From the NCBI RefSeq assembly GCF_964355755.1, contig NC_092675.1, positions 925,812-989,811 on the forward strand: DNA of 64,000 nt, in the 5' to 3' direction. A program made the translations under genes and the position numbers. The DNA is from Antedon mediterranea (Eukaryota > Animalia > Echinodermata). Below the pieces are notes generated by a model. The model saw only the letters and a program-made list of their open reading frames with translations. It was not told the origin of the DNA and did no database searches. Positions 1-62,800 of this stretch are shown piece by piece; position 1 is the stretch's first letter; each line of letters opens with the position of its first letter.

Positions 1-755
1 GAAGTATGTCAAATAATTATTCATCACTGTTGTATTGCTTTTTAACAGCTTAAGGCAGCTTGTAACCTTTTGACATTGAGACTACCCTTATAAACTATCC
101 TTATGAACATCCAATGAATACAGCTTTACTAACAGTTTACCTGGTTAATACTAATAAGTAGCATATGTTTAATGATCAACCACATCCTATGGCTCTGTTG
201 TCATTCTACCTTCATTACTGTATTTAACAACCTTTTAATTTAGTGTGGTTCTGCTGAATAACAGTATACACCAACAAATGTTATTTTTCTGTTATACTTT
301 ACTTACTTAGTCCAGGACATGCCCAAACTTATATCACTAGATTCCTCAATAATTTCCCATATGCCATTGTGACAGCCAGTTCTTCTCTCTGCATACCATT
401 ACCAGGTTCCATCTCTAGTACATCGATGTATGTTTTGTGTTATATTTTACTCAAAAAACTCCAGTATCCATTTTTTCTTGTAGATCAAAAATCAAAAAGT
501 TTAACTACCACTTTAAAAAAAAATATTTTAACGTATATGGGCCAATAGGTCCTCGGTAAATCAAATGGAGCTGGCCAGTTGCACCGGTTCTTCCTCAGGT
601 TTTGAAAATTGCAATGCAGAAGAAAGGAAATTTTGGAGCCCTCTATTTCAAAATCCTGGACCAGTTCTGAGTTATTTGGCATAAGTTAATGTCTTGGATT
701 CTTTTTAATTATTTGACAATTCTAAATGTGGTTCACCGTATTCCATCGAAACTAA

Positions 756-911
756 AACTCTGTCTACACTATCAAACTAGTTTGACAGAAAAAGTGTGTA
801 TGGTAGTGATATGCCCAAATATGGTAGTGATGTATGACATCATCATGTCCATATGGGCACATCACATTTTTTTTTTGTTACATAAAGATTGATGATAGTG
901 TAGACAGAGCT
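756..911. mobile_element. Short Tourist-like MITE, family with TIR AGCTCTGTCTACACTATCAAA (copy 1)
   Basis: Starts aactctgtctacactatcaaac and ends gatagtgtagacagagct (inverted). The same family recurs 5 more times in the window. Confidence 0.75.
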
Positions 912-1805
912 TATAGCAGTACAGTACGCATATAAATCAGTTTTTTATTTGTTGGGACTTTTGTTTTAGTTTTCGTTTCATTGGAGATGTAGAAATTGAA
1001 ACTCAATTTTTGTTTTCAATGCTGAAATTAAAGGGTAATTTTTAAATCCAATTGAACTCTCACTATCAACATTGTATGCTTGATTCGCACTAATTCTTGA
1101 TGTATGAATGCTACACCCTTATCTATTTAATTGCTTTAAATCTTCAAAAGCGGGGGCCCTTACAAGAGATACTTCTTTATTAATGATTTTCTCTAAACCG
1201 CTAAATGGTAATATTTTAATATATGAAGTGTGGTTATAACAAGTACATAAATTCTTAGTATTTAGTCCTGTTACTTTAAAGTCATTTCCTTTTCCTTTTT
1301 ATTCAGTATCTCATGAATATTGATGAGTGTTTATTTATTCAAAGCTTACATGGTTCACAGAGAAGTAGTTCAAAAAGATAAAAATACTTAACCTCTATGA
1401 AAATTGATTTTATTTTTTGAATAAAAAAAATTTCTTAAAAAGTGTAAGTTCAGATAGTTCTTTTGTTTTTGAATAATTATGCATAATACAATATTGATTT
1501 TTCATGTATTATTTACAAGAAACTTAAAATATAGTTACTAAATATAGTACTATACCATTTTCCCAATTGTTCAGTGACATATTTTCTTTAGTTTGATATT
1601 CAACGTAGATTTATGCATGTTATGTTTTGAGTTGTTTTTTTATTTATGGATATGATTGAAACTGTATTTTAAGTAGGCCTGTAGTAAATGCTTGAATAAA
1701 AAAATCAAACTTGGTGCTTTAGAGATTGGTCCCTACTACTAGGGAGTAGGGAGAAAAGCATTCTATTTGTGATAGTACAACTATTATGTGCACTATTGTG
1801 AATAA

Positions 1806-2807
1806 GGGCCTGTTTCTGCTGCAACTGCTCAAAATACGGTATAAAAATACGGTATAAAATACGGTATTTTTTATACCGTATTTTTTAGTACCCCGTTTCT
1901 GCTAACAATACTTCTTGGGTGGTCGTGTTAAATTTCATCTTTTTTACCCAAATTGCCATTCATTTATTTGGTCGATAATTAAAAGTCGCAATAAAGGAAG
2001 TTTTACGTCTCACTTTCAACAGCCTAGCCCTAGTGATAGAGATGTTGTGAGAGCACAGAAAACATCGTAATGGGGACAGTTAATTCGTTCCCTCCCCGAG
2101 TTATTGTATTTTGCAATGTTGTACTGCTTTCGCAGGCTCTTCAGCTTTGAGTTTACTTGCTTTGGAGTCAAGTCTATTCCATACTCCTGCTTTATTTTTT
2201 TAGAAATGTCTTTATAATGTGGTTGTCCCTTTTATTAGTTGGCCAGACATTTTAGCTTCCCCACACACATTTATTTAGTAAAACTGTGACGTCTTCGCTC
2301 CACATTTTCGCCGAATATATCTATACACGTGTGTAAAGCAGCTGACAGCGACAGAAAATAAAAACATGAATGTTGACCTTTTGTCATGTAAAAAAAAAAT
2401 ACGGTATTTTTTATTGGCAGCAGAAACGGGTACAAAAAAAACGGTATAAATTTGTAAATACCGTATTTTATCCACAAATTTTGTGGGGAAAATACGGTAT
2501 ACAAAATACGGTATATTTTTTATGAGCGCAGTTTCTGCTGCCAAAAATATACCGTATATATACGGTATTCAAAAAATACCGTATAATATACGGTATTTAG
2601 TTGGCAGCAGAAACAGGGCCTTATTCTCACTTCATCATTATTGTTTCAAAATTAAATAATTATCTTAACCAACAGGAAGTTTAGCTTGTACTATACCTGT
2701 AAATGTTTTCAAATAAAGTAATATTTAGTATTACAGGTAGTAATATGGCATATACCATTATTATAAAAAGAGTATCAAGTATTCTAGTTGGCAGCAGAAA
2801 CAGGGCC
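1806..2807 (-). mobile_element. Non-autonomous PIF/Harbinger element with Myb/SANT relic and duplicated right TIR
   Basis: Left TIR gggcctgtttctgctgcaact follows TAA. Right TIR agttggcagcagaaacagggcc ends at 2620 (then TTA) and again at 2807 (then TAA). Subterminal aaatacggtat repeats are present. Confidence 0.8.
2050..2305 (-). pseudogene. Frameshifted Myb/SANT-like DNA-binding domain relic (Harbinger second ORF)
   Basis: Manual translation across two frameshifts gives MWSEDVTVLL/INVCGEAK.../HYKDISKKIKQEYGIDLTPKQVNSKLKSLRKQYNIAKYNNSGRERINCPHYD, which fits the Myb/SANT-like (trihelix) pattern. Confidence 0.7.
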
Positions 2808-3288
2808 TAAGTCTATTTCTATTTATATTTTTACTATAGTATAATAAAATTTAACAGTGAGTGAGCTGGTAGTATGGTTCATTGATATGATACAATTTTA
2901 TCTTTCCTAATAATATTTTATTCAACACATTAATATATGATTTTTTTTACCTTGACCTAGAATATCTGTCTAATACAATAAATATACCTTTTTTTTTTGT
3001 GGAATTATGGTTGTCAGGGCAGTTACAGTTTGTTAGGGAAAGTTGTCTCTGAGAATGTATTCAAACCTCTTGATGGTAAGATCAATCTACTACTGTGCAA
3101 CAATGATCGTCTTTCACCAAACTGATAAGATACAGATCATGGTTTTCAAACATTTCCATGATAAAATGATGTAGCAGTGATTTTGCCACCAAAAAAACAG
3201 GATATAGAACCAGTGTAGGATGTCAGCAATTAAGTGTATGACGTAAACACAGTAAATTCTCTGACAATCACACATCCTTTGGATTTCA

Positions 3289-3625
3289 AAACTGTCTGGT
3301 TGCCCAAACTGTCTGGTTGCCCAAAGTGCCTGGTGGCATAAACTGTCTGGTTGCACAAAATGTCAAACTGTCTGGTTGCACAAACTGTCTGGTTGTCCAA
3401 ACTGCCTGGTGGCCCAAATTGTTGGTTACCCAGACTGTCTGGTTGCCCAAACTGTCTGGTTGCCCAAACTGTCTGGTTGCCCAAACTGTCTGGTTGCCCA
3501 AACTGTCTGGTTGCCCAAACTGTCTGGTTGCCCAAACTGTCTGGTTGCCCAAACTGTCTGGTTGCCCAAACTGTCTGGTTGCCCAAACTATCTGGTTGCT
3601 CAAACTGTCTGGTTGCACAAACTGT
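3289..3625. repeat. 17-bp minisatellite (aaactgtctggttgccc), about 19-20 copies
   Basis: Directly visible. It explains the repetitive ORFs at 3114-3670. Confidence 0.95.
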
Positions 3626-5179
3626 TGTAAAAATCATGACATGCAATTAATAACAAATAGCTTTGGATAGCTAGTTTAAAATAGATATTTCATGTTTGAT
3701 TTAATAAAAGCAACCCATAAGTATGTCTTTCAGTCTGCTACTAGTTGGTTTGATTTATGAATAAGAAATGACATATGAATGAATGAATATTGTAAGCGTT
3801 TTTATTTGTACTGTATATTATAACATGACTTGCATCTAATACAAATAAGCCTAGTGGATTTGTGTTTTATACCAGCTTTTGTAGGATCTCTACATTCCTA
3901 ACTTAGGCCTATTGCATCACCTGGATATTTGTTCTTCCTCACTGCATTTATGAGGCTAATAACATAGGTTTTGAATTTAGGGTAAGCCTTGCTAGCCACA
4001 AAAACAAATTAATAAAACCGACTGGAAAAGAATGTCCATAATTCCAAAACAATTATTGTCAATTCTCATTTTAATGAATGTTTAATGCTGTTATAAAAAT
4101 ATGTTTGTTTTAAATATAAAATAAAACGTGTCTGTCTAGTGTACATACATTTTAGTATTGTCGTTTTTAATAGCATCCTACTGTAGTATTAAACCATGGT
4201 GGAATTATCTTATTTTATGTGTACATTGTTCAATTGAAGAATTAAAGAAACAGCTTTTACTTAAACATTTCATTTTACTGATGCTTCATATCTCACTTGT
4301 ACATCTCAGACAAGTTTACTTCTAGGTTGGTCCTCATTTTATGCTCTGTATTGTTCGTATGACATTAGATGAAATATGATGTTGAATTTGATTATCCACT
4401 AGTTGGTTTCTTGTAGGCCTACTGATATTAGGTACTAATAGTAATGTCAGGGTCATTGCAGCCTATACATCTAGGTAACACAGCAGGGGATCAAATATAG
4501 AGGAAGCTGTCTCTGTTGCCATCGGCAACTATTTCTAAAGGGCATCCATGTAGATGGTAGATGACTGTGAATGACGCAAAGGTCATAACGCTAACATGGA
4601 TAAGGTTGAATAATGTTATTCTTGCACTTTTGTCTATCAAATGAAGGATTTAGGTTTAAATATGGTTGCCCACCCTTACTTACTAGCTACTAAAAAGTTT
4701 AACCTATAAATATCCAATTGCGGATACAGGCCAAATCACTGCAATTTGGTGTAACCAAACTTACTACTAAAACTTGATTCGATGTTATGTTCAGGTTATA
4801 GGAGTGTTGTGTTAATGTTGAAGGAGTTATAATCTTGAGGGAGATAGGTCTTACAAATGTTGAACTTGTAACATAATCAAAACTAGTATTATGGATTGTT
4901 CTAACATAACATTTTTCTGTAGTCGAATTATTAGTTATCCGCATTCAGCGGATAACTCCTTGTAACTGTCCTGTTTCATCATCTTTTTAGTTATCCGCAC
5001 ATGGCAGTGTGCGGATAACTCCTTGTTATTGTATGGGATCTTTTTTTTTTTCTTTTTGGTTATCCGCAACGAAGTTGCAGGATAACCTCTTGTGATTGTA
5101 CGAAATCATCAACATCAACTTTTTATTAGTTATCCGCACTTGGCGGATAACTCCTTGTTATTGTATGGGATCAATATTT

Positions 5180-8100
5180 GGTTATCCGCAACGAAGTTGC
5201 AGGATAACCTCTTGTGATTGTACGAAATCATCAACATCAACTTTTTATTGGTTATCCGCAACGAAGTTGCAGGATAACCTCTTGTGATTGTACGAAATCA
5301 TCATCAACATCAACTTTTTATTTCTCTTCTTTCTTTCTGTATGATTTTTGTGGAACGCTTTTCTCGAAAACTTGCAAACATAACATTTTGTAACTTTCTC
5401 AACATATCGTCATGCACATGAAGATGTGCAGCGAAGCTTTTCATGATGTTTACAATTGCGCAACGTGACCTACGCGCGATTTAACGATTTTGTCGTATTT
5501 AACATAGCTCGACAACCAAATAACATTTCAACTTGAAACTTTGCAAAAGTTTAATTTATATCATGCGCTAACTTTCTGTTGAAAAAAAATTGCGTGTTTT
5601 ACATAAAGTTACGCGCGCACGCGCATATAAAATTTCAAAATGCGCAAAATTAATTTATAATCAACTTTCTACGCGTTTCATGTCGTTTTAAGCATGTCAC
5701 AAATTCCCACGCGTGCGCACATTTTTACGTGTGCGGTGCGCACGTAGCATTGAAAACGTATTTTTTTCGCGTGATTTATGTTGTTTCAGCTTTTTCAAGT
5801 AATTTTACCAAATTTTAAACAATTTCGACTTAAAGATACGTCATACGAGCACGTCGAATTGGACAATTGGCGCGCGTTTTTTATTAAAAGGTTAAAAAAT
5901 TCGTTTAAAATTTGCCTTTTTTTAAACAGTCGTAATTTTTAAACTAGACGGTCAACTTTTTGTGGATGGCATATTCTGGAAGTAGATGAGTTGTAGATAT
6001 CGAATCAGGTAGTAATATGGCTAACTGGACATTCTGACGTCATCGTATGGCCACACGAATATAAAATTTAGGATTTTTGTATCTTTCGTCATAGCTCATC
6101 ACATTGAATAGAGCGCATCTCCACTTATCCGTTTTCCATTTTCACCCCGATTTTGATATTGTCTAGGTCAATCAAGTATCTTTCGCATGAGTTGAAAATA
6201 TTTTAATTTTTTTGACGTCATCATGCCTAAAAATTTAAATCACGTGTGGCATTAATTTCATCTTTACAGTAAATTTTAATCTGTTATAGCTCGTAAGAAT
6301 AAAATGTGATAATCACGATTAAAACTTTTTCTGGAAGCTATTGGATTGTAGATACGAAATTATGTAAAAATGTTGCCAATCGGATGTTGTGACGTCATCA
6401 TATGGCTAGTTAAACAAAAAAGGTCGTATTTTCATCTTTTGCGTCATAATTCATTACATTTAAAAGAGTGCGCATCAATATTTCACGTATTCAAATTTCT
6501 TCTACACGCTAATACGTTGTTGCTGAGAAAATTTCCTTTCGGAATTGCTACCTTCGCGTTTCATTTTAAAACCGTCAACATGTTAAAAATTGCAATAAAT
6601 AGCGGGTCCCGTAATTTCACCTCTTCTACACTGTATGTGATATGGATACAGATACTGTGTATACTATATATGAATTTAAATAATAAAATTCAGCAATAAC
6701 AACATATCATATTCTTCAGTTCAGGTCATAATGCCAACGTGAACACTTCCTTTTGTCCTTAACCTATCCTCTTAATGTTAATGTTGCACCACTTGCGCGG
6801 CGGATAACCAAACTCGTCAAAGTGACGAGTTACATGTCTAGTTTCTCTTCTTTCTTTCTGTATGATTTTTGTGGAACGCTTTTCTCGAAAACTTGCAAAC
6901 ATAACATTTTGTAACTTTCTCAACATATCGTCATGCACATGAAGATGTGCAGCGAAGCTTTTCATGATGTTTACAATTGCGCAACGTGACTTACGCGCGA
7001 TTTAACGATTTTGTCGTATTTAACATAGCTCGACAACCAAATAACATTTCAACTTGAAACTTTGAAAAAGTTTAATTTATATCATGCGCTAACTTTCTGT
7101 TGAAAAAAAATTGCGTGTTTTACACAAAGTTACGCGCGCACGCGCATATAAAATTTCAAAATGCGCAAAATTAATTTATAATCAACTTTCTACGCGTTTC
7201 ATGTCGTTTTAAGCATGTCAAAAATTCCCACGCGTGCGCACATTTTTACGTGTGCGGTGCGCACGTAGCATTGAAAACGTATTTTTTTTGCGTGATTTAT
7301 GTTGTTCCAGCTTTTTCAAGTAATTTTACCAAATTTTAAACAATTTCGACTTAAAGATACGTCATACGAGCACGTCGAATTGGACAATTGGCGCGCGTTT
7401 TTTATGAAAAGGTTAAAAAATTCGTTTAAAATATGCCTTTTTTTAAACAGTCGTAATTTCTAAACTAGACGGTCAACTTTTTGTGGATGGCATATTCTGG
7501 AAGTAGATGAGTTGTAGATATCGGATCAGGTAGTAATATGGCTAACCGGACATTGTGACGTCATCGTATGGCCACACGAATATAAAATTTAGGATTTTTG
7601 TATCTTTCGTCATAGCTCATCACATTGAATAGAGCGCATCTCCACTTATCCGTTTTCCATTTTCACCCCGATTTTGATATTGTCTAGGTCAATCAAGTAT
7701 CTTTCGCATGAGCTAAAAATATTTTAATTTTTTTGACGTCATCATGCCTAAAAATTTAAATCACGTGTGGCATTAATTTCATCTTTACAGTAAATTTTAA
7801 TCTGTTATAGCTCGTAAGAATAAAATGTGATAATCACGATTAAAACTTTTTCTGGAAGCTATTGGATTGTAGATACGAAATTATGTAAAAATGTTGCCAA
7901 TCGGATGTTGTGACGTCATCATATGGCCAGTTAAATAAAAAAGGTCGTATTTTCATCTTTTGCGTCATAATTCATTACATTTAAAAGAGCGCGCATCAAT
8001 ATTTCACGTATTCAAATTTCTTCTACACGCTAATACGTTGTTGCTGAGATAATTTCCTTTCGGAATTGCTACCTTCGCGTTTCATTTTAAAACCATCAAC

Positions 8101-8362
8101 ATGTTAAAAATTGCAATAAATAGCGGGTCCCGTAATTTCACCTATTCTACACTGTATGTGATATGGATACAGATACTGTGTATACTATATATGAATTTAA
8201 ATAATAAAATTCAGCAATAACAACATATCATATTCTTCAGTTCAGGTCATAATGCCAACGTGAACACTTCCTTTTGTCCTCAACCTATCCTCTTAATGTT
8301 AATGTTGCACCACTTGCGTGGCGGATAACCAAACTCGTCAAAGTGACGAGTTACATGTCTAG
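5180..8362 (+). mobile_element. HINE-like element C2 (head 5180-5249, body 6842-8362), host of C3
   Basis: C-type head and C-type tail. Confidence 0.8.
5250..6841 (+). mobile_element. Intact HINE-like element C3
   Basis: Uninterrupted from ggttatccgcaacgaagttgcaggataacc to gcggataaccaaactcgtcaaagtgacgagttacatgtctag. Confidence 0.85.
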
Positions 8363-8378
8363 TTTTTTCTGTATTATT

Positions 8379-11300
8379 AGTTATCCGCACTTGGCGGATA
8401 ACTCCTTGTTATTGTATGGGATCAATATTTTTTTCTGTATTATTAGTTATCCGCACTTGGCGGATAACTCCTTGTTATTGTATGGGATCAATATTTTTTT
8501 CTGTATTATTCTTCTTTCTTTCTCGCTATTTTTGTGTAGAGCGTTTCTCTAAAATGTGTAAACATAACATTTTATAACTTTGACAACATGTGGGCATTTA
8601 CGTGAAGTTGTGCACCTCCTATTTTTGAATTACGTCAGAGTTGCGCAACGTGACTTACGCGCGATTTTATGATTTTTTATGATTGATCATAGATTAAAAA
8701 CTAAAAGTGATTTTTAATTGACACTTTGTGAAAGTTTAATTTATATCATGCGCTAACTTTCTGTTTGAAAAAAATTGCGTGTTTTACACAAAGTTACGCG
8801 CGCACGCGCATTTAAAATTTCAAAATGCGCAAAAATAATTTCTAATCAACTTTCTACGCGTTTCATGTCATTTTAAGCATGTACAAAATTACCGCGCGCG
8901 CGAAAAATATTACGCGCACGGTGCGTATAGAGCATGAAAATCATGTTTTTTTCTCTTGAATTGTGATTTTCCAGCCTTTCCTAGTCATTTTCAAAAAGAT
9001 TGACATCATTTCAAATTAAAATTACGTCATACGAACACGTTGATTTAGCCCATTTGCGCGCGTTTTAGTTGAAAAAGTTACAAAATGTTGTCAAAATTAT
9101 GCCTATTTTGAATGTTTTATAGCTTCTCAGGATCAACGATTACCCCTAATTTTTTTAACTTAATATGTAAGCAGATATGTTGTAGATATGAATTCATGCA
9201 GAATTTTTACCTCACGGATGTTGTGACGTCATCATATGGCCACACGAATGTAAAATATAGAATTTTTTTGTCTTTCGTTATTGCTCATCACATTCAATGG
9301 AGCGCATCACGCTTATACGTATTTCTTTTTCTCCGAGATTTTAATATTGTCTAGGTCAATCAACTATCTTTCGCATGAGATAAAAATATTTTAATTTTTA
9401 TGACGTCATCATGCCTAAAAATTTTAATTACGTGGGTCATTAATTTCATCTTTACAGTAAATTTTAATCTGTAATAGCCCGTCAAAATAAAATGTGATAA
9501 TCACGATTAAAACATTTTCTGGAAGCTCTTGGATTGTAGATATGAAATCATGTGAACATTTTGCCAATCAGATGCTGTGACGTCATCATATTGCAAGTTA
9601 AATAAAAAAAGTCGTATTTTCATCTTTTGCATCATAGTTCATTATATTTAAAAGAGCGCGCATCAATATTAAACGTATTCAAATTTCTTCTACACGTTAA
9701 TATGTTGTTGCTGAGATAATTTGCTTCCGAAATTGCTATCTTAGTGTTTCATCTTGATACCGTCGCCATGTTACAAATTTGAATAAATGGCGGGTCCCGT
9801 GATTTCACCTATTCTACACTGTATGTAACATGTATACAGATTATACTGTTTGCATGTATATACTATATGACACAAAATTGACAGAATTCAGCACTAACAA
9901 CATATCATATTCTTCAGATCAAGTCATAATGCCATAATTTTTTCTCTGTGCAATATTCTAACGTATGACGTGCACATGGCGTTTGTCGTGCGGATAACTA
10001 ACTCGTCAAAGTGACGAGTTACATGTCTAGTTCTTCTTTCTTTCTCGCTATTTTTGTGTAGAGCGTTTCTCTAAAATGTGTAAACATAACATTTTATAAC
10101 TTTGACAACATGTGGGCATTTACGTGAAGTTGTGCACCTCCTATTTTTGAATTACGTCAGAGTTGCGCAACGTGACTTACGCGCGATTTTATGATTTTTT
10201 ATGATTGATCATAGATTAAAAACTAAAAGTGATTTTTAATTGACACTTTGTGAAAGTTTAATTTATATCATGCGCTAACTTTCTGTTTGAAAAAAATTGC
10301 GTGTTTTAGACAAAGTTACGCGCGCACGCGCATTTAAAATTTCAAAATGCGCAAAAATAATTTCTAATCAACTTTCTACGCGTTTCAAGTCATTTTAAGC
10401 ATGTACAAAATTACCGCGCGCGCGAAAAATATTACGCGCACGGTGCGCATAGAGCATGAAAATCATGTTTTTTTCTCTTGAATTGTGATTTTCCAGCCTT
10501 TCTTAGTCATTTTCAAAAAGATTGACATCATTTCAAATTAAAATTACGTCATACGAACACGTTGATTTAGCCCATTTGCGCGCGTTTTAGTTGAAAAAGT
10601 TACAAAATGTTGTCAAAATTATGCCTATTTTGAATGTTTTTTAGCTTCTCAGGATCAACGATTATCCCTAATTTTTTTAACCTAATATGTAAGCAGATAT
10701 GTTGTAGATATGAATTCATGCAGAATTTTTACCTCACGGATGTTGTGACGTCATCATATGGCCACACGAATGTAAAATATAGGATTTTTTTGTCTTTCGT
10801 TATTGCTCATGACATTCAATGGAGCGCATCACGCTTATACGTATTTCTTTTTCTCCGATATTTTAATATTGTCTAGGTCAATCAACTATCTTTCGCATGA
10901 GATAAAAATATTTTAATTTTTATGACGTCATCATGCCTAAAAATTTTAATTACGTGGGTCATTAATTTCATCTTTACAGTAAATTTTAATCTGTAATAGC
11001 CCGTCAAAATAAAATGTGATAATCACGATTAAAACATTTTCTGGAAGCTCTTGGATTGTAGATATGAAATCATGTGAACATTTTGCCAATCAGATGCTGT
11101 GACGTCATCATATTGCCAGTTAAATAAAAAAAATCGTATTTTCATCTTTTGCATCATAGTTCATTATATTTAAAAGAGCGCGCATCAATATTAAACGTAT
11201 TCAAATTTCTTCTACACGTTAATATGTTGTTGCTGAGATAATTTGCTTCCGAAATTGCTATCTTAGTGTTTCATCTTGATACCGTCGCCATGTTACAAAT

Positions 11301-11552
11301 TTGAATAAATGGCGGGTCCCGTAATTTCACCTATTCTACACTGTATGTAACATGTATACAGATTATACTGTTTGCATGTATATACTATATGACACAAAAT
11401 TGACAGAATTCAGCACTAACAACATATCATATTCTTCAGATCAGGTCATAATGCCATAATTTTTTCTGTGTGCAATATTCTAACGTATGACGTGCACGTG
11501 GCGTTTGTCGTGCGGATAACTAACTCGTCAAAGTGACGAGTTACATGTCTAG
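8379..11552 (+). mobile_element. HINE-like element D2 (head 8379-8444, body 10031-11552), host of D3
   Basis: D-type head and D-type body. Confidence 0.8.
8445..10030 (+). mobile_element. Intact HINE-like element D3
   Basis: agttatccgcac ... gtgcggataact 12-bp subterminal inverted repeat, 3' hairpin, CTAG end. Confidence 0.85.
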
Positions 11553-14500
11553 TTCTTCTTTCTTTCTCGCTATTTTTGTGTAGAGCGTTTCTCTAAAATG
11601 TGTAAACATAACATTTTATAACTTTGACAACATGTGGGCATTTACGTGAAGTTGTGCACCTCCTATTTTTGAATTACGTCAGAGTTGCGCAACGTGACTT
11701 ACGCGCGATTTTATGATTTTTTATGATTGATCATAGATTAAAAACTAAAAGTGATTTTTAATTGACACTTTGTGAAAGTTTAATTTATATCATGCGCTAA
11801 CTTTCTGTTTGAAAAAAATTGCGTGTTTTACACAAAGTTACGCGCGCACGCGCATTTAAAATTTCAAAATGCGCAAAAATAATTTCTAATCAACTTTCTA
11901 CGCGTTTCATGTCATTTTAAGCATGTACAAAATTACCGCGCGCGCGAAAAATATTACGCGCACGGTGCGCATAGAGCATGAAAATCATGTTTTTTTCTCT
12001 TGAATTGTGATTTTCCAGCCTTTCCTAGTCATTTTCAAAAAGATTGACATCATTTCAAATTAAAATTACGTCATACGAACACGTTGATTTAGCCCATTTG
12101 CGCGCGTTTTAGTTGAAAAAGTTACAAAATGTTGTCAAAATTATGCCTATTTTGAATGTTTTATAGCTTCTCAGGATCAACGATTACCCCTAATTTTTTT
12201 AACTTAATATGTAAGCAGATATGTTGTAGATATGAATTCATGCAGAATTTTTACCTCACGGATGTTGTGACGTCATCATATGGCCACACGAATGTAAAAT
12301 ATAGGATTTTTTTGTCTTTCGTTATTGCTCATCACATTCAATGGAGCGCATCACGCTTATACGTATTTCTTTTTCTCCGAGATTTTAATATTGTCTAGGT
12401 CAATCAACTATCTTTCGCATGAGATAAAAATATTTTAATTTTTATGACGTCATCATGCCTAAAAATTTTAATTACTGTACGTGGGTCATTAATTTCATCT
12501 TTACAGTAAATTTTAATCTGTAATAGCCCGTCAAAATAAAATGTGATTATCATGATTAAAACATTTTCTGGAAGCTCTTGGATTGTAGATATGAAATCAT
12601 GTGAACATTTTGCCAATCAGATGCTGTGACGTCATCATATTGCAAGTTAAATAAAAAAAGTCGTATTTTCATCTTTTGCATCATAGTTCATTATATTTAA
12701 AAGAGCGCGCATCAATATTAAACGTATTCAAATTTCTTCTACACGTTAATATGTTGTTGCTGAGATAATTTGCTTCCGAAATTGCTATCTTAGTGTTTCA
12801 TCTTGATACCGTCGCCATGTTACAAATTTGAATAAATGGCGGGTCCCGTAATTTCACCTATTCTACACTGTATGTAACATGTATACAGATTATACTGTTT
12901 GCATGTATATACTATATGACACAAAATTGACAGAATTCAGCACTAACAACATATCATATTCTTCAGATCAGGTCATAATGCCATAATTTTTTCTGTGTGC
13001 AATATTCTAACGTATGACGTGCACGTGGCGTTTGTCGTGCGGATAACTAACTCGTCAAAGTGACGAGTTACATGTCTAGTTTCTCTTCTTTCTTTCTGTA
13101 TGATTTTTGTGGAACGCTTTTCTCGAAAACTTGCAAACATAACATTTTGTAACTTTCTCAACATATCGTCATGCACATGAAGATGTGCAGCGAAGCTTTT
13201 CATGATGTTTACAATTGCGCAACGTGACTTACGCGCGATTTAACGATTTTGTCGTATTTAACATAGCTCGACAACCAAATAACATTTCAACTTGAAACTT
13301 TGAAAAAGTTTAATTTATATCATGCGCTAACTTTCTGTTGAAAAAAAATTGCGTGTTTTACACAAAGTTACGCGCGCACGCGCATATAAAATTTCAAAAT
13401 GCGCAAAATTAATTTATAATCAACTTTCTACGCGTTTCATGTCGTTTTAAGCATGTCAAAAATTCCCACGCGTGCGCACATTTTTACGTGTGCGGTGCGC
13501 ACGTAGCATTGAAAACGTATTTTTTTCGCGTGATTTATGTTGTTCCAGCTTTTTCAAGTAATTTTACCAAATTTTAAACAATTTCGACTTAAAGATACGT
13601 CATACGAGCACGTCGAATTGGACAATTGGCGCGCTTTTTTTATGAAAAGGTTAAAAAATTCGTTTAAAATATGCCTTTTTTTAAACAGTCGTAATTTCTA
13701 AACTAGACGGTCAACTTTTTGTGGATGGCATATTCTGGAAGTAGATGAGTTGTAGATATCGGATCAGGTAGTAATATGGCTAACCGGACATTGTGACGTC
13801 ATCGTATGGCCACACGAATATAAAATTTAGGATTTTTGTATCTTTCGTCATAGCTCATCACATTGAATAGAGCGCATCTCCACTTATCCGTTTTCCATTT
13901 TCACCCCGATTTTGATATTGTCTAGGTCAATCAAGTATCTTTCGCATGAGTTAAAAATATTTTAATTTTTTTGACGTCATCATGCCTAAAAATTTAAATC
14001 ACGTGTGGCATTAATTTCATCTTTACAGTAAATTTTAATCTGTTATAGCTCGTAAGAATAAAATGTGATAATCACGATTAAAACTTTTTCTGGAAGCTAT
14101 TGGATTGTAGATACGAAATTATGTAAAAATGTTGCCAATCGGATGTTGTGACGTCATCATATGGCCAGTTAAATAAAAAAGGTCGTATTTTCATCTTTTG
14201 CGTCATAATTCATTACATTTAAAAGAGCGCGCATCAATATTTCACGTATTCAAATTTCTTCTACACGCTAATACGTTGTTGCTGAGATAATTTCCTTTCG
14301 GAATTGCTACCTTCGCGTTTCATTTTAAAACCATCAACATGTTAAAAATTGCAATAAATAGCGGGTCCCGTAATTTCACCTATTCTACACTGTATGTGAT
14401 ATGGATACAGATACTGTGTATACTATATATGAATTTAAATAATAAAATTCAGCAATAACAACATATCATATTCTTCAGTTCAGGTCATAATGCCAACGTG

Positions 14501-16388
14501 AACACTTCCTTTTGTCCTCAACCTATCCTCTTAATGTTAATGTTGCACCACTTGCGTGGCGGATAACCAAACTCGTCAAAGTGACGAGTTACATGTCTAG
14601 TTCTGTATTATTCTTCTGTCTTTCTTCCTTTTTTTGTGAGCCCTGTTTCTCTAAAATGTGTGAACAGAACATATCATAACTTTGTCAACATATAGATATT
14701 TACGTGAAGTTGTGCACCTCCTATTTTTGAAAAACGTCAGAGTTGCGCAACGTGACTTGCGCGCAATTTTATGAATTTAAATGATTGATCATAGATTAAA
14801 AACCGAAAGTCATTTTGTATTGAGACTTGGTGAAAATTTAATTCATATCAAGAGTCAACTTTATGTGGATTAAAAATGGCATGTTTCACACAAAGTTACG
14901 CGCGCACGCGCATTTAAAATTCTAAAATGCGAAAAATCAATTTCTAATCAACTTTCTACGCATTTCTTGTCATTTTGAGCATGTCAAAAATTCCCACACG
15001 TGCGCAAATTTTTACGCGCGAGGGGCGCACGTAGCTTTAAAAACATACTTTTTTCGCGTGATTTATGTTTTTCCAGCCTTTTCTAGTACTTTTACCAACT
15101 TTTAAACAATTTCGACTTAAAATGACGTCATTACGAGCTCGTCGAATTGAATAATTTGCGCGCGTATTTGATCAAAAAGCTAAAAAAAACGTCAAAATTA
15201 TGCCTTTTTTTAAACAGTCGTAGTTTCTAAACTAAACGGTGAAAGTTATTTTTATTACATATTATGGAAGTTGATGAGTTGTAGATATCAAATCATACAT
15301 TAATATGGCTAACAGGACATTTTGACGTCATCGTATGGCCACGCGAATATAAAATATAGGATTTTTGTCTCTTTCGTTATTGCTCATCACATTCAATGGA
15401 GCGCATCACGCTTATCCGTATTCCATTTTCTCCGAGATTTTAATATTGTCTAGGACAATCAACTACCTTTCGCATGAGTTAAAAATATTTTAATATTTGT
15501 AACGTCATCATGCCTAAAAATGTTATTTACTTGGGTCATTAATTTCATCTTTACAGTAAATTTTAATCTGTTATCGCTCGTAAGAACAAAATGGGATAAT
15601 CACGATTAAAATGTTTTCTGGAAGCTATTGGATTGTAGATACGAAATCATGTAAACATTTTGCCAATCGGATGTTGTGACGTCATCATATGGCCAGTTAA
15701 ATAAAAAAAGTCGTATTTTCATCTTTTGCGTCATAGTTCATTACATTTAAAAGAGCGCGCATCAATATTTCACGTGTTCAAATTTCTTCTACACGTTAAT
15801 ATGTTGTTGCTGAGATAATTTCCTTCCGAAATTGCTACATTCGCGTTTCATTTTGAAACCGTCAATATGTTAAAAATTTGAATAAATAGCGGGTCCCGTA
15901 ATTTCACCTATTCTACACTGTATGTGATATGTATACAGATTATACTGTGTATACTATATGACACAAAATAACAGAATTCAGCAATAAAAACATATCATAT
16001 TCTTCAGTTCAGGTCACAATGCCATAATCTTTTTCCGTGTGCAATATTCCAACGTATGACGTGCACGTGGCGTTTGTCGTGCGGATAACTAACTCGTCAA
16101 AGTGACGAGTTTCATGTCTAGTTAGTTATCCGCATTCAGCGGATAACTCCTTGTAACTGTCCTGTTTCATCATCTTTTTTTTTTTTTTCTGTATTCTTCT
16201 TTCTTTCTGTCATTTTTGTGCAGAGCATATCTCAAAAACGTGTAAAGTTAACATTTCATAACTTTGTCAACATATGGGCATTCACGTGAAGTTGTGCTTT
16301 TTTATTTTTGAATGACGTCAGAATTGCGCAACATGACTTACGCGCGTTTTAACGAATTTCGCGTATTTAACATAAATCAAAAACCATA

Positions 16389-19300
16389 CTAGACATGTAA
16401 CTCGTCACTTTGACGAGTTTGGTTATCCGCCGCGCAAGTTGTGCAACATTAACATTAAGGGGATAGGTTGAGGACAAAAGGAAGTGTTCACGTTGGCATT
16501 AGGACCTGAACTGAAGAATATGATATGTTGTTATTGCTGAATTTTATTATTTAAATTCATATATAGTATACACAGTATAATCTGTATCCATATCACATAC
16601 AGTGTAGAATAGGTGAAATTACGGGACCCGCTATTTATTGCAATTTTTAACATGTTGACGGTTTTAAAATGAAACGCGAAGGTAGCAATTCCGAAAGGAA
16701 ATTATCTCAGCAACAACGTATTAGCGTGTAGAAGAAATTTGAATACGTGAAATATTGATGCGCGCTCTTTTAAATGTAATGAATTATGACGCAAAAGATG
16801 AAAATACGACCTTTTTAATTAACTGGCCATATGATGACGTCACAATATCCGATTGGCAACATTTTTACAAAATTTCGTATCTACAATCCAATAGCTTCCA
16901 GAAAAAGTTTTAATCGTGATTATCACATTTTATTCTTACGAGCTATAACAGATTAAAATTTACTGTAAAGATGAAATTAATGCCACACGTGATTTAAATT
17001 TTTAGGCATGATGACGTCATAAAAATTAAAATATTTTTAATTCATGCGAAAGATAGTTGATTGACCTAGACAATGTCAAAATCGGGGTGAAAATGGAAAA
17101 CGGATAAGTGGAGATGCGCTCTATTCAATGTGATGAGCTATGACGAAAGATACAAAAATCCTAAATTTTATATTCGCGTGGCCATACGATGACGTCACAA
17201 TGTCCGGTTGGCCATATTAATACCTGATCCGATATCTACAACTCATCTACTTCCAGAATATGCCATCCACAAAAAGTTGACCGTCTAGTTTAGAAATTAC
17301 GACTGTTTAAAAAAAGGCATATTTTAAACGAATTTGTTAACCTTTTCATAAAAAACGCGCGCAAATTGTCCAATTCGACGTGCTCGTATGACGTCTCTTT
17401 AAGTCGAAATTGTTTAAAATTTGTTAAAATTACTTGAAAAGGCTGGAAAAACAGAAATCACGCGAAAAAAATACGTTTTCAATGCTACGTGCGTACTGCA
17501 CACGTAAAAATGTGCGCACGCGTGGGAATGTTTGACATGCTTAAAACGACATGAAACGCGTAGAAAGTTGATTATAAATTAATTTTGCGCATTTTGAAAT
17601 TTTAAATGCGCGTGCGCGCGTAACTTTATGTAAAACACGCAATTTTTTTCCAACAGAAAGTTAGCGCATGATATAAATTAAACTTTTGCAAAGTTTCACT
17701 TTAAAATGTTGTTTGGTTTTTGACATATGTTAAATACGAGAAAATCGTTAAATCGCGTGTACGTCACGTTGCGCAATTGTAAACATCATGAAAAGCTTCG
17801 CTTGACGACGTTACATAAATGTCAAAATGTTAACATAGTTAACAAAATGTTATGTTTGCAAGTTTTAGAAAAAAACGTGCCACAAAAATCATACAGAAAG
17901 AAAGAAGAACTAGACATGAAACTCGTCACTTTGACGAGTTAGTTATCCGCACGACAAACGCCACGTGCACGTCATACGTTGGAATATTGCACACAGAAAA
18001 AGATTATGGCATTATGACCTGAACTGATGAATATGATATGTTGTTAGTGCTGAATTCTGTTATTTTGTGTCATAGTATACACAGTATAATCTGTATACAT
18101 ATCACATACAGTGAAGAATAGGTGAAATTACGGGACCCGCTCTTTATTCCAATTTTTACCATGGCGACGGTATCAAAATGAAACACTAAGATAGCAAATT
18201 CGGAAGGAAAGTATATCAGTAAGCACATATTAATGTGTAGAAGAAATTTAAATACGTAAAATATAGATGCGCGCTCTTTTAAATGTGATGAACTATTACG
18301 CAAAATATGAAAATATGACTTTTTTTATTCAGCTGGCCATATGATGACGTCACAACATCCGATTGGCAAAATGTTTACATGAATTCGTATCTACAATCCA
18401 ATAGCTTCCAGAAAACGTTGTAATCATGATTATCACTTTTTATTCTGACGAGCTATAACAGATTAAAATTTACTGTAAAGATGAAAATATGTGACCCAGG
18501 ATATTTACATTTTTAGACATTATGACGTCATAAAAATTAAAATATTTTTAACTCATGCGAAAGAAAATTGAATGACCTAGACAATATAAAAATCAAAGTG
18601 AAAATGAATAACGGATAAGTGGAGATGCGCTCTATTAAATGTGATAAGCTATGACGAAAGATACAAAAATCCTATATTTTATATTCGTGTGGCCATACGA
18701 TGACGTTGCAATGTCCGGTTAGCCATATTAAAGCATGATCCGATATCTACAACTCATCAACTTCCAGAATATGTAATAAAAATAATTTTTACCGTTTAGT
18801 TTAGAAACTACGACTGTTTAAAAAAATGCATTATTTTGCCGAATTTGTTAACTTTTTCATCAAAAACGCGAACAAATTATCCAATTCGGCGTGCTCGTAT
18901 GACGTCATTTTAAGTCGAAATTGTTTAAAAGTTGGTAAAATTACTAGAAAAGGCTGAAAAAACATAAATCACGTGGAAAAAGTATGTTTTTAACGCTACG
19001 TGCGCACCGCGCGGGTAAAAATTTGCGCATGCGTGGGAATTTTTGACATGCTCAAAATGACAAGAAACGCGTAGAAAATTGATTAGAAATTGATTTTTCG
19101 CATTTTAAAATTTTAAACGCGCGTGCGCGCGTAACTTCTTGTAAAACATGCCATTTTTTGTGCAAAAAAAGTTTGCCCTTGATATGACTTAAATTTTCAC
19201 AAAGTGTAAAAAAAAAATTACGCTTGGTTTTAAATCTATGATCAATTTAAAAAAATCATAAAATCATGCGTAAGTCACGTTGCGTAACTATGACGTAATT

Positions 19301-19554
19301 CAAAAATAGGAGGTGCACAACTTCACGTAAATGCCCATATGTTGACAAAGTTATGAAATGTTATGTTTACCCATTTTAGAGATACGCTCTGCACAAAAAG
19401 TGAGGGAGAAAGACTGAAGAATAATGAAAAAAAAAAAAAAGACACAGGACAGTTACAAGGAGTTATCCGCTAAATGCGGATAACTAAAAATAAAAAGTTG
19501 ATGTTGATTTCGTACAATCACAAGAGGTTATCAGCAACTTCGTTGCGGATAACC
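16389..19554 (-). mobile_element. Inverted HINE-like element C4 (head 19554-19486, body 17909-16389), host of E1
   Basis: Reverse complement of the C-type head and body. Confidence 0.8.
17910..19485 (-). mobile_element. Intact inverted HINE-like element E1
   Basis: On the minus strand it reads agttatccgcatttagcggataact ... hairpin ... tctag. Confidence 0.8.
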
Positions 19555-20877
19555 AATAACAATTTAAATTGAAACTTAGCAAAAATTTAATTTATATTCT
19601 GCGCTAACTGACTGTGGAAAAAAAATGGCATGTTTCACACGAAGTTACGCGCGCACGCGCATTTAAAATTTAAAAATGCGAAAAATCAATTTCTAATCAA
19701 CTTTCTGCGCGTTTCATGTCATTTTGAGCATGTAAAAAATTCCCACGCGCGTGCGTATTTTTACGCTCGTGGTGCGCACGTAGCGTTGAAACAATTTTTT
19801 TCGCGTGATTTAGGTTTTTCCAGCCTTTTCTAGTAATTTTACCAAGTTTTAAACTATTTCGACTTAAAATCAGGTCATACGAGCCCGTAAAATTGGATAA
19901 TTTATGTGCGTTTTTTATGAAAAAGTTAAAAAATTCATCAAAATTTGTCAAAATTATACCTTTTTTTAAACAGTTGTAGTTTCTAAACTAAACGGTAAAA
20001 GTTGTTTTTATTACGTATTCTGGAAGATGATGAGTTGTAGATATCGTATCATGCATCAATATGGCTAACCGGACATTATGACGTCATCGTATGGCCACTC
20101 GAATATAAAATATAGGGACTTTTTCTCTTTTGTCATAGCGCATCACATTTAATAGAGCGCATCTCCACTTATTCGTTTTCCATTTTCACCCCGATTTTGA
20201 TATTGTCTAGGTCAATCAACTATCCTTTGCATGAGTTAAAAATATTTTAATTGTTATGACGTCATCATGCCTACAAATTTAAATTACTTGTGCCTTAAAT
20301 TTCATCTTTACAGTAAATCTTAATCTGTTATAGCTCGTCAGAATAAAACGTGATAATCATGATTAAAACGTTTTCTGGAAGCTATTGGATTGTAGATACG
20401 AATTCATGTAAACATTTTGCCAATCGGATGTGGTGACGTCATCATATGGCCAGTTAAATAAAAGAAGTCGTATTTTCATCTTTTGCGTCATAATTCATTA
20501 CATTTAAAAGAGCGCGCATTAATATTTCACGTATTTAAATTTCTTCTACACGTTAATATGTTGTTGCTGAGATAATTTCCTTCCGAAATTGCTACATTTG
20601 CGTTTCATTTTGAAACCGTCAACATGTTAAAAATTGCAATAAATAGCGGGTCCCGTAATTTCACCTATTCTACACTGTATGTGATATGTATACAGATTAT
20701 ACTGTGTATACTATGACACAAAATTGACAGAATTCAGCACCAACAACATATCATATTCTTCAGTTCAGGTCATAATGCCATAATCTTTTTCTGTGCGCCA
20801 TATACCAACGTATGACGTGCACATGGCGTTTGTCATGCGGATAACTAACTCGTCAAAGTGACGAGTTACATGTCTAG

Positions 20878-22394
20878 TATTATTCTTCTGTCTTTCTCCC
20901 TCACTTTTTGTGCAGAGCGTATCTCTAAAATGGGTAAACATAACATTTCATAACTTTGTCAACATATGGGCATTTACGTGAAGTTGTGCACCTCCTATTT
21001 TTGAATGACGTCAGAGTTGCGCAACGTGACTTACGCGCGATTTTATGATTTTTTATGATTGCTCATAGACTAAAAACCAAGCATAATTTAGTTTTGACAC
21101 TTTGTGAAAATTTAAGTCATATCAAGTGCAAACTTTTTATTGATTAAAAATGGCATGTTTTACAAGAAGTTACGCGCGCACGCGCATTTAAAGTTTCAAA
21201 ATGCGTAAAATTAATTTTTAATCAACTTTTTACACGACTCATGACATTTCGCGCATGTCAAAAATTCCCACGTGCACGCATTTTTTTACGCGCGCGGTGG
21301 CCACGTACCGTGAAAAACATCTTTTTTTCTCATGAATTATGTTTTTCCAGCCTTCTAGAGTAATTTTACCATTTTAAAACCATTTGTGACTTTAAATTAC
21401 GTCATACGAGCACGTCGAATTGGAAAATTTACGCGCGTTTTTGATCAAAAAGCTAAAAAAATCGTCAAAATTATGCCTTTTTTTAAACAGTCGTAGTTTC
21501 TAAACTAAACGGTGAAAGTTATTTTTATTACATATTCTGGAAGTTGATGAGTTGTAGATATCAAATCATACATTAATATGGCTAACAGGATATTTTGACG
21601 TCATCGTATGGCCACACGAATATAAAATATAGGATTTTTGTCTCTTTCGTTATTGCTCATCACATTCAATGGAGCGCATCACGCTTATCCGTATTCCATT
21701 TTCTCCGAGATTTTAATATTGTCTAGGTCAATCAACTACCTTTCGCATGAGTTAAAAATATTTTAATATTTGTAACGTCATCATGCCTAAAAATGTTAAT
21801 TACTTGGGTCATTAATTTCATCTTTACAGTAAATTTTAATCTGTTATCGCTCGTAAGAACAAAATGGGATAATCACGATTAAAATGTTTTCTGGAAGCTA
21901 TTGGATTGTAGATACGAAATCATGTAAACATTTTGCCAATCGGATGTTGTGACGTCATCATATGGCCAGTTAAATAAAAAAAGTCGTATTTTCATCTTTT
22001 GCGTCATAGTTCATTACATTTAAAAGAACGCGCATCAATATTTCACGTGTTCAAATTTCTTCCACACGTTAATATGTTGTTGCTGAGATAATTTCCTTCC
22101 GAAATTGCTACATTCGCGTTTCATTTTGAAACCGTCAATATGTTAAAAATTTGAATAAATAGCGGGTCCCGTAATTTCACCTATTCTACACTGTATGTGA
22201 TATGTATACAGATTATACTGTGTATACTATATGACACAAAATAACAGAATTCAGCAATAAAAACATATCATATTCTTCAGTTCAGGTCACAATGCCATAA
22301 TCTTTTTCCGTGTGCAATATTCCAACGTATGACGTGCACGTGGCGTTTGTCGTGCGGATAACTAACTCGTCAAAGTGACGAGTTTCATGTCTAG
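20878..22394 (+). mobile_element. Headless HINE-like body (E-type 5' part, B1-like 3' part)
   Basis: Full body and tail, but no unmatched head upstream (9 heads versus 10 tails on +). Confidence 0.7.
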
Positions 22395-24774
22395 TTTTTT
22401 TTCTGTATTCTTCTTTCTTTCTGTCATTTTTGTGTCTCGCGTAACTCAAAAACGTGTAAACATAACATTTCATAACTTTGGCAACATGTGGGCATTTACG
22501 TGAAATTGTGCACCTCCTATTTTGAATGACCTCAGAGTTGAGCAACATGACTTACGCGCGTTTTTACGAATTTCGCGTATTTAACATAGATCGAAAACCA
22601 TATAACAATTTATTATGAAACTTAACAAAAGTTTAAGTTATATCTTGCGCTAACTTACTATGGGGAAAAAATGGCATGTTTCACACAAAGTTACGCGTGC
22701 ACGCGCGTTTAAAATTTCAAAATGCGAAAAATCTATTTCTAATCAACTTTCTACGCATTTCATGTCATTTTGAGCATGTAAAAAATTCCCACGCGCGCGC
22801 ATTTTTTTACGCGCATGGTGCGAACGTAGCGTTGAAAACAATTTTTTTTGCGTGATTTATGTTTTTTCAACCTTTTCTAGTAATTTAACAAACTTTTAAA
22901 CAATTTCGAATTAAAATTACGTCATACCGGCACGTTGAATTGGATAATTTACGTGCGTTTTTGATGAAAAAGTTAAAAAATTTGTCAAAATTCGTCAAAA
23001 TTATGCCTTTTTTTAATCAGTCATAGATTCTAAACAACGAGGTGAACTTTTTTTTAATTACATATTCTGGAAGTTGATGAGTTGTAGATATCGGATCATG
23101 AATCAATATGGCTAACCGGACATTGTGACGTCATCGTATGGCCACACGAATGTAAAATATAGGATTTTTGTCTCTTTCGTTATTGCTCATCATATTCAAT
23201 GGAGCGCATCACGCCTATCTGTATTCCGTTTTCTCCGAGATTTTAATATTGTCTAGGTCAATCAACTATCTTACGCATGAGTTAAAAATATTTTAATTTT
23301 TATGACGTCATCATGCCTAAAAATTATAATTAACAGGGTCATTAATTTCATCTTTACAGTAAATTTTAATCTGTTATAGCTCGTAAGAATAAAAAGTGAT
23401 AATTATGATTAAAACGTTTTCTGGAAGCTATTGGACTGTAGATACGAATTAATGTGAACATTTTGCCAATCGGATGTTGTGAAGTCATCATATGGCCAGT
23501 TGAATAAAAAAAGTCGTATTTTCATATTTTGCGTCATAGTTCATCACATTTAAACGAGCACGCATCCATATTCTACGTATTCAAATTTCTTCTACACGTT
23601 AATATGTTGTTGGTGAGATAATTTCCTTCCGAAATTGCTATCTTAGTGTTTAATTTTAATACCGTCGCCATGTTAAAAATTGGAATAAACGGTGGGTCCC
23701 GTAATTTCACCTATTCTACACTGTATGTAATATGTATACAGATTATACTGTATATACTATATGACACAAAATAGACAGAATTCAGCACTAACAATATATG
23801 ATATTCTTCAGTTCAGGTCATAATGCCATAATCTTTTTCTGTGTGCAATATTCCAACGTATGACGTGCACGTGGCGTTTCTCGTGCGGATAACTAACTCG
23901 TCAAAGTGACGAGTTTCATGTCTAGTTTTTGTTTTCCTTTCGGTGGTAGTCAAATTAGTTCATCATACTGTAATGTAGAATAATTAAGTGACTTTATTTA
24001 TATATAGCTTTTTATTAGTGAACAATAATTTCACTGTTAATATACAATTTAATTACAATGAAACACTTTTTATTTTACTTTCAATTCTGAAATTGAAACC
24101 GAAACTTGACTGGGGACTATACAGTAATTTAATGTTATTGATTTCTAACAAACCCTTTAATTATTAGATCATAGTAAGTAAGTAAGAACTTAATATAATT
24201 AGCATACAGTACTTGCTACAGATTTGCATAGTAGTATACTGGTACCCCTCCCCTCCCCCCTCTTCCATTTCCTCCATCTACTAATTAGTTCCATAACTTT
24301 CCATTTGACATGGCTATTTCGCTGTCGTATCATAGGGTACGTGTATGTAGTTGCTGTCTGCTAATCGTGGTCGTGTATTTTCATTGGTTAAGGTTAAAAT
24401 CACTGATGCATCACTGGATTAGCGTTATGAAATCTACCCTCTCCCGCTAGAGTTATTAACGCCACTGGCGCGGAGTAACAGCTCCCTAACGCTAATCCGC
24501 GGCATGGTTCAGACACAAAAATATGTACGCCGCTTACATAACTCCACTGTAACTCCGTGAGTCTGAACATACCCTTAGTCCTGGACTTAGTGTACCTATT
24601 ATTTATTATTAGTATTCACATAATAATATATAACCCTCTCTATTTTCTATGTCAAGGACATTCTATTATGAATAGATTTAACAATAAAATTCAATATTCT
24701 TTTTGTAGTAGACTTACAAATCTAATGTTTAAGGTAAATTAAATTCATTAATTTTAAACGAATGATTTTTTTTA

Positions 24775-37702: not shown

Positions 37703-37962
37703 TGTGTTATCCCTTGCTGTGTGTCCTTTTGCTGTGTTATCCCTTGCTGTGTGTCCTTTTGCTGTGTTATCCCTTGCTGTGTGTCCTTTTGCTGTGTTAT
37801 CCCTTGCTGTGTGTCCTTTTGCTGTGTTATCCCTTGCTGTGTGTCCTTTTGCTGTGTTATCCCTTGCTGTGTGTCCTTTTGCTGTGTTATCCCTTGCTGT
37901 GTGTCCTTTTGCTGTGTTATTCCTTGCTGTGTTATCCCTTGCTGTGTGTCCTTTTGCTGTGT
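37703..37962. repeat. 30-bp minisatellite (tgtgttatcccttgctgtgtgtccttttgc) made of two related 15-mers
   Basis: About 8.5 copies, directly visible. Confidence 0.95.
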
Positions 37963-42486: not shown

Positions 42487-42624
42487 TGTGTTTCCAAAAG
42501 ATGTTTTTGACATTTTTGGTTGTGTTTCCAAAAGATGTTTTTGACATTTTTGGTTGTGTTTCCAAAAGATGTTTTTGACATTTTTGGTTGTGTTTCCAAA
42601 AGATGTTTTTGACATTCTTGGTTG
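42487..42624. repeat. 34-bp tandem repeat x4
   Basis: Unit tgtgtttccaaaagatgtttttgacatttttggt. Confidence 0.95.
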
Positions 42625-44111: not shown

Positions 44112-52463
<8,352 letters not shown>

Positions 52464-56239: not shown

Positions 56240-56770
56240 TGTCATGTTACGGAAACTACTAACTTCAATCTACGTAACATTGCTTGCATTCGAAAGTATC
56301 TGTCAAAGCGTACTACCGCTACACTAATAAATGCCTCAGTCACTTCTCGCCTTGACTATTGCAACTCTTTTCTTTGCCGTACTGAAATCTTTAATGAATT
56401 GACTTCAATGTCTCCAGAACACTGCTCCACGCATTCTAACACTTACAAGAAGATCCTTCCTCACACATATCTCCTATTGACTCCTACTAACATTTAAAGC
56501 GCTAATTCTTAAACAAGCTACTTATCTTCTCCCTCCTACATCTCTCTTGCTTTTCTTCGTTCAGATGATCAAAACCTACTGGTTGTTCCTAGAACAAACA
56601 CCAAATCCTATGCACAAAGCTTTATTTTATGTTCTCTGCTGCTTTTCTTTGGAATTCTCTTCCTTATTTATCTAATACAAGCACCTTTGATTTTTACTCA
56701 TTTTCTCCTTCTCCTCCATCTGGACACTATTGAGTAAAAAGTGCGATTTTCAAAGTACTACTCCTCCCTT
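56240..56770 (+). mobile_element. 5'-truncated degenerate L2-clade LINE (ORF2 C-terminus)
   Basis: Translates to FNLRNIACIRKYLSKRTTATLINASVTSRLDYCNSFL, LQCLQNTAPRIL, LRSDDQNLLVVPRT and LWNSLP, typical of the L2 post-RT region. Confidence 0.85.

Positions 56771-57979: not shown

Positions 57980-62800
<4,821 letters not shown>

Follow-up and report, generated by a model that had tools for sequence, protein, structure and literature searches.

A six-deep nest of non-coding transposon copies and its possible growth by insertion behind resident 5′ ends

Non-coding elements of the HINE and HLE2 groups are recognized by subterminal inverted repeats of 11-13 bp, a 3′ stem-loop, a T-rich target, and the lack of a target duplication, as stated in the portions of PMC4067079, PMC7492417, and PMC11417382 available to us. 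According to the same portions, HINE/DINE-1, the oyster Cg_HINE, and HLE2 elements share with the elements studied here a nested 5′ inverted repeat and, following the 5′ end, a stretch of simple sequence, whereas the latter differ by a fixed CTAG placed 29-30 bp past the repeat and by lacking a central tandem array. Target choice by Helentron-type elements is so far known merely as “T-rich”, and deep self-nesting of HINE/DINE-1/HLE2 elements is not described in the available text of these three papers.

The closest described case is FoHeli of Fusarium oxysporum, in which the first 31-85 nt are repeated and self-insertion was proposed as the cause (PMC5148889, as far as its accessible sections go). 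FoHeli is also HLE2-type with asymmetric inverted repeats, and its target, TNAT^A, resembles the TTAT^[T/A] seen here if a single T is taken as the element start. The multi-head FoHeli copies in those sections have one 3′ end, with one nested example, whereas here the bodies are in place and balanced to depth 6. Insertion of one copy near the 5′ end of another has thus been suggested before, for Fusarium Helitrons; the present locus is a deep and clean example of behaviour known in part. Since that proposal is already in print, the value of a single locus is limited. Its junctions record both order and position and so permit a direct test of end-guided integration. If integration is end-guided, this would explain multi-5′-end Helitrons, mosaic subfamilies, and the 1.5-kb pseudo-tandem arrays that repeat annotation calls satellites, and it would offer a high-copy element a way to spare genes.

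Other systems share single features. The Phytophthora proto-Helentron, likened here by features, has a 5′ TT, a 3′ CTAG, and short inverted repeats and inserts between A and T (as do 6/11 of our elements), but this oomycete element is autonomous, measures 14 kb, and carries its stem-loop 5′ (available parts of PMC4067079 and PMC11417382). Multiple termini are common to our locus, to maize Helitrons, where they are attributed to nesting and later transposition from an inner end (PMC3288121), and to Xenopus HelenXT233, which has two left ends (PMC11417382); for neither do the accessible portions of these papers report landing at a constant distance behind the head. For oyster, PMC12628747 cites multi-5′-end arrays and nested Helitron parts, nesting has been invoked in Paramecium (PMC13085455), and the portions available of PMC13286980 and bioRxiv 10.64898/2026.02.10.705023 hold nothing on self-insertion. 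In the literature searched (main texts, few subscription journals), we came across no report of an HLE2 nest that has several levels and a fixed insertion position.

Nest structure and element class

The window (the whole stretch of 64,000 nucleotides analysed) is animal-type DNA of ~33% GC, rich in introns. The elements are confined to positions 4931-23925, and the remaining 45 kb have no BLAST similarity to them. A motif scan of this region, with RGTTATCCGC as head core, gave 11 heads and 12 tails. On the plus strand, heads of types A, B, C, D, C, and C are stacked with core starts at 4933, 4989, 5058, 5128, 5180, and 5250, followed by D and D at 8379 and 8445 and by A at 16124; the two minus-strand heads are at 19554 and 19485. 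Tails end at 6841, 8362, 10030, 11552, 13079, 14600, 16121, 20877, 22394, and 23925 on the plus strand and at 16389 and 17910 on the minus strand.

Units were cut out in silico as TT[AG]GTTATCC...CTAG, innermost first, which yielded 11 elements of 1578-1594 bp and one headless body of 1517 bp, named X (Table 1). The host re-formed for 11/11 headed units, base-exact except for the length of T runs, and all 11 restored elements begin with TT, end with CTAG, and lack a target duplication. The resulting structure is A1[B1[C1[D1[C2[C3], D2[D3]]]], A2[reversed C4[E1]], X].

Table 1. Coordinates of the nested elements, of example features within one intact copy, and of neighbouring features (positions in the window).
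Feature	Position	Strand	Segments and description	Insertion
A1, outermost	4931-23925	+	head 4931-4986, body 22395-23925; restored 1587 bp	genomic TTA^T
B1	4987-16121	+	head 4987-5055, body 14601-16121; adjoins A2 5′ end	56 bp into A1
C1	5056-14600	+	head 5056-5125, body 13080-14600	69 bp into B1
D1	5126-13079	+	head 5126-5177, 14-bp piece 8363-8376, body 11553-13079	70 bp into C1
C2	5178-8362	+	head 5178-5247, body 6842-8362	52 bp into D1
C3	5248-6841	+	intact, level 6	70 bp into C2
D2	8377-11552	+	head 8377-8442, body 10031-11552	66 bp into D1
D3	8443-10030	+	intact, level 6	66 bp into D2
A2	16122-20877	+	segments 16122-16388 and 19557-20877	56 bp into A1
C4	16389-19556	-	head 19488-19556, body 16389-17909	267 bp into A2, reversed, TTA^T
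E1	17910-19487	-	intact	69 bp into C4
X	20878-22394	+	headless body	
D3, example 5′ end	8443-8469	+	TT and hairpin with the inverted repeat as 5′ arm; D head fold -10.6 kcal/mol	
D3, example post-head tract	8490-8535	+	pyrimidine/T-rich, landing zone	
D3, example 3′ end	9988-10030	+	subterminal repeat that stops 29 bp short of the 3′ end, then 9-bp stem-loop and CTAG	
Myb/SANT-like DNA-binding domain fragment	2019-2231	-	PF13837, E 4.6e-10	
Minisatellite	3289-3625		period 17	
Minisatellite	37703-37962		period 30	
Minisatellite	42487-42625		period 34	
Minisatellite	47556-47919		period 18	
ZMIZ gene exons	46101-52236	+	Pfam, near 49-50 kb	
Glutamate dehydrogenase gene exons	59803-62781	-	Pfam	

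A last-in-first-out parse paired the types of 9/9 plus-strand heads and bodies with a maximum depth of 6, compared with 3/9 for a first-in-first-out parse. The type labels were typed by hand from the motif and tail scans; three of the nine pairings (C3, D3, and A2) are contiguous anyway, and that of B holds by definition. For the seven separated plus-strand bodies, 2/1260 label orders fit (p = 0.0016). The link between head and body types is anchored by the uninterrupted C3, D3, and E1 and by the start of A2, B being without an anchor, and the counts of heads and bodies are equal for each type (C 4/4, D 3/3, A 2/2, E 1/1).

A six-deep nest of 11 non-coding transposon copies plus one headless body is thus confirmed as real at this locus. 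Excision and stack parse agree with the original prediction, which had described stacked heads followed by bodies closing like brackets over six levels and had proposed the inside-out excision as a check. Its growth by ~1.55 kb per insertion holds as stepwise nesting, with the unit size corrected to ~1.59 kb by excision; its bracket parse is consistent with the excision and is not unique, because one body is headless and allows alternatives.

In all restored units (11/11), a perfect asymmetric inverted match of 12-14 bp links base 1 to a stretch whose last base lies 29-30 bp from the 3′ end. Head and tail co-vary, C heads with TTGG going with CCAA tails and the others with TTAG going with CTAA; since 54/110 cross-pairs also match over 12 bp, this match discriminates just C from non-C. 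A 5′ hairpin overlaps the subterminal repeat (stem of 10-14 bp, -9.6 to -14.6 kcal/mol, in 6/6 heads folded), and a stem-loop with a 9-bp stem follows the right repeat in the two tails folded, A and C, its motif being found in 12/12 tails. The element boundary is ambiguous by one T: read as T..CTAGT, 9/11 headed units lie at T^T, the usual insertion point of HLE2/HINE elements, and the other two at T^A; read as TT..CTAG, six lie at A^T and five at T^T. The same ambiguity is remarked for related elements in the accessible parts of PMC4067079, PMC7492417, and PMC11417382.

Compared with canonical Helitrons (HLE1), the 5′ end is TT rather than TC and inverted repeats are present, the 3′ CTAG being common. 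A search of the bodies for periods up to 500 found no central tandem array of the DINE-1/Cg_HINE subtype. Three frames of at least 90 aa occur in the nest, none with a Pfam match; the Rfam search gave no match, and the Pfam scan of 116 window frames returned no Rep/helicase or AP endonuclease domain of a partner. The anatomy (inverted repeats, 5′ hairpin, 3′ stem-loop, T-rich site, and no target duplication) corresponds to the HINE/Helentron-like type initially recognized, and supports classing the elements as non-autonomous HLE2 (Helentron/HINE-like); membership in Helentrons proper would require an autonomous partner that encodes Rep/helicase and AP endonuclease and has the same termini. D3 (element positions 738-905 and 1092-1261) and C3 also contain a degenerate internal duplication with a period of ~355 bp, ~69% alike.

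Landing sites and the proposed mechanism

The landing zone had been predicted at 50-70 bp inside resident copies. At this locus, nine of the 10 nested cuts lie between 52 and 70 bp from the host 5′ end (Table 1), all nine in host orientation, C4 being the sole exception. These nine tract cuts sit 25-39 bp behind the hairpin, at sequences that differ across subfamilies. Every cut site has 9-13 T per 16 bases, and all six A^T insertion sites are TTA^T. This motif occurs nine times in the tracts of the elements, with four uses, and 281 times elsewhere in the elements, with one use.

Under six T-rich rules, the tracts contain 3-29% of the element sites, giving a probability for at least nine of 10 cuts of 1e-4 to 1e-13, where the stricter rules were chosen after the sites were seen and the values are too small because three sites were each used twice and the cuts are not independent. 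Among equally T-rich sites of the whole window, the tracts make up ~9%, yet they received 9/11 insertions (P ~2e-8, uncorrected for the choice of window). On a genome scale, a rough chain model with independent hits, site density taken from the window flanks, and six assumed pairs of copy number (1,000-16,000) and accessible size (50-1,000 Mb) predicts 1.5e-12 to 1e-3 depth-6 chains per genome from T-rich preference alone. Since this preference predicts at most 0.001 stacks per genome, strong attraction to the site is needed; one depth-6 chain would require a per-copy tract hit rate of 0.16-0.29.

The bracket structure, the termini, the lack of target duplications, and the cut positions and orientations can be read directly from the sequence; head guidance and mobilization in trans are our inference. 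The nest was probably built as copies landed 52-70 bp behind resident 5′ ends, with a head-guided transposase cutting the T-rich tract. The copies would be mobilized by an HLE2-group Rep/helicase protein encoded elsewhere. This transposase would dock on the resident head, whose terminal inverted repeat the enzyme has to recognize, and would cut the tract just behind it. HUH nucleases cleave single strands (PMC4778049, in its available portion), and the hairpin, lying beside the T-rich tract, could make available the single strands they need. Each insertion supplies a new head and a new tract; therefore, the target would renew itself. Head guidance is favoured because the distance from the hairpin stays similar while the cut sequence varies, and because only one of the many TTA^T sites that the elements hold outside the tracts was hit. 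Two landings speak against it: the D2 site is 14 bp behind the C2 tail and was near a head only if D2 arrived first, and C4 landed outside the tract and reversed.

The strongest alternative, which we rate as rather unlikely, is that the post-head tract is simply the best T-rich match for the enzyme, the head being irrelevant and a local hot spot or local tolerance aiding accumulation. HINEs do prefer T-rich sites (PMC4067079, PMC7492417, as their accessible text has it), which agrees with the T content of every cut site here and with the repeated hits at homologous sites. Furthermore, the letters preceding heads are T-rich and end in A in at least 23 contigs of run X7 and at least 10 of run X8, two runs that with X9 form one sample, from which the window possibly comes. 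The cuts could be explained by a narrower sequence preference, because no other part of the elements is as T-rich as the tracts, which by the strictest rule hold up to 29% of sites. This reading has to face the excess of insertions over the tracts' share of equally T-rich window sites, the genome-scale expectation, and a cut sequence that changes with the subfamily while the distance stays similar.

Extending head guidance beyond this locus, we propose tentatively that animal HLE2 transposases may target resident left ends in general, cutting ~25-40 bp behind the hairpin, as a self-targeting safe-harbour strategy. If so, a large share of new insertions would go into old copies, nests would arise while copies diverged by a few tenths of a percent, and heads and bodies would be reshuffled into new subfamilies.

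Relationships among the copies

The bodies most alike are not adjacent. Among C-type bodies, the non-adjacent b2 and b6 are 99.8% identical vs 98.6% for the adjacent b1 and b2, and among D-type bodies the corresponding values are 99.5% (b3 and b5) vs 98.9% (b3 and b4). This, together with the equal head and body counts, argues against simple tandem duplication. Rolling-circle concatemers would yield a head-body order, and the only contact of tail and head, between the B1 tail and the A2 head, joins different subfamilies. Both processes had been dismissed in favour of nested insertion from the order of the heads; excision, stack parse, and the differences between copies bear this out.

C1 and C2 differ at 3 positions, D1-D3 mutually at 8-16, and C3 at 21-22, C3 being the C-type outlier in head (an additional ATC) and in body alike; A1 and A2 have a common head, yet differ at 175 positions. 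The outer D1 carries fewer private changes than the inner D2 and D3. Since dating by divergence fails to track the nesting order, the differences mostly reflect the donors, and the numbers for D1-D3 and C3 indicate that most incomers came from different donors rather than by local copying from a neighbour as main source; C2 alone could have been copied from C1. Local hopping was not observed for Helraiser in the available part of PMC4778049. From the C1-C2 differences, the five copies within C1 arrived inside at most 0.35-0.55% divergence, barring gene conversion. Subfamily bodies at 14601-23925 are also mosaic, the nearest neighbour changing along A1, A2, B1, E1, and X, a pattern suggesting recombination or head-body swapping.

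The headless body X starts within a tract, and its last 961 columns are 99.1% like the B1 body; upstream of them there are ~100 differences, and the 5′ part of X is E-like or distinct. Most simply, X would be a 3′ read-through: in another nest, copying of A2 would have continued beyond the A2 terminus as far as that of its host, and bypass of the 3′ end is demonstrated for Helraiser (PMC4778049, available part). Otherwise, the B head could belong to X, with the body at 14601-16121 as the read-through, or the head of X may have been lost through slippage within the stack. The nest is six deep under the first two options and seven deep if a head was lost.

X also bears on an explanation that we consider improbable, in which part of the depth comes from ready-made composites moved whole, or from separate duplications of heads and bodies followed by recombination, so that the number of targeted events is overstated. 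The near-identity of X and B1 (99% over ~960 columns), the tandem repeats formed by the D head (66 bp, exact) and the C head (70 bp, near-exact), and the few differences between C1 and C2 would fit it, and multi-terminus Helitrons moving as units are reported in the accessible portions of PMC5148889 and PMC3288121. Against it are the equal head and body counts per type and the distance between the most similar bodies; composites would themselves require self-insertion into the tract somewhere. A mis-ordering of this repeat-rich region by the assembler is very improbable, as the copies each have their own variants, base-exact junctions, and consistent head-tail pairing, although no read or contig was found to cross the stack and the best run covers 0.73 of the sampled words of positions 1-10000.

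Family members in sequencing runs and neighbouring features

The family is abundant, with 15,636 contigs of run X7 aligning to one intact copy at a median summed depth of ~1.35 million vs ~300 for single-copy variants. The depth ratio by bin, 800-16,000, is not a copy number, and overlap between contigs inflates it. The same family occurs in 450 contigs of run X2, which belongs to a different study and carries a different organism code.

Among the best 15 of 104 joints, one leads from a D tract to a head start (depth 421) through a linker absent from the window, and none has the tail-to-tract orientation. Among the best 24 of 192 loose-end rows, CTAG-TT is followed by the tract consensus CTTCTTTCTTTC in 16 run X7 and 2 run X2 contigs, with an agreement of 0.58 over 30 letters and with identical junctions collapsed by the contigs; the window itself has three junctions with tract sequence after CTAG-TT. 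In the same best 24 rows, a variant tail continues into long flanks (median 143 letters) in 15 run X7 contigs, from which it follows that solitary copies exist. As evidence of self-nesting outside the locus, the contig data are only suggestive.

A subfamily with another 3′ loop, CTCGTCCGTAGTGACGAG, absent from the window, is seen in runs X7, X9, and X2, and another has an altered spacer ahead of CTAG (both among the loose-end rows listed). Run X3, with a third organism code, holds a single contig of 1594 bp, 81-89% alike over body parts and identical in the last 31 bp, which is either a copy from a relative or contamination. Four matches to the tail pattern, two in metagenomes, two in prokaryote genomes, and none at viral loci, are taken as chance because they lack BLAST similarity to the elements.

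Around the nest, the ZMIZ and glutamate dehydrogenase genes are convergent. The Myb/SANT-like fragment is, we assume, possibly a remnant of a Harbinger-type transposon, and the frame at 56180-56497 (+), with no match in the Pfam search, looks to us by motif like the tail of a LINE reverse transcriptase. Four minisatellites were found (Table 1), the one with period 18 comprising 20 perfect copies. Palindromes of the form TGACGTCA, which we take to be CRE-like, number 2-4 per element vs 4 across the remaining 45 kb of the window, and the nest contributes 36 such sites ~22 kb upstream of the ZMIZ-like exons.
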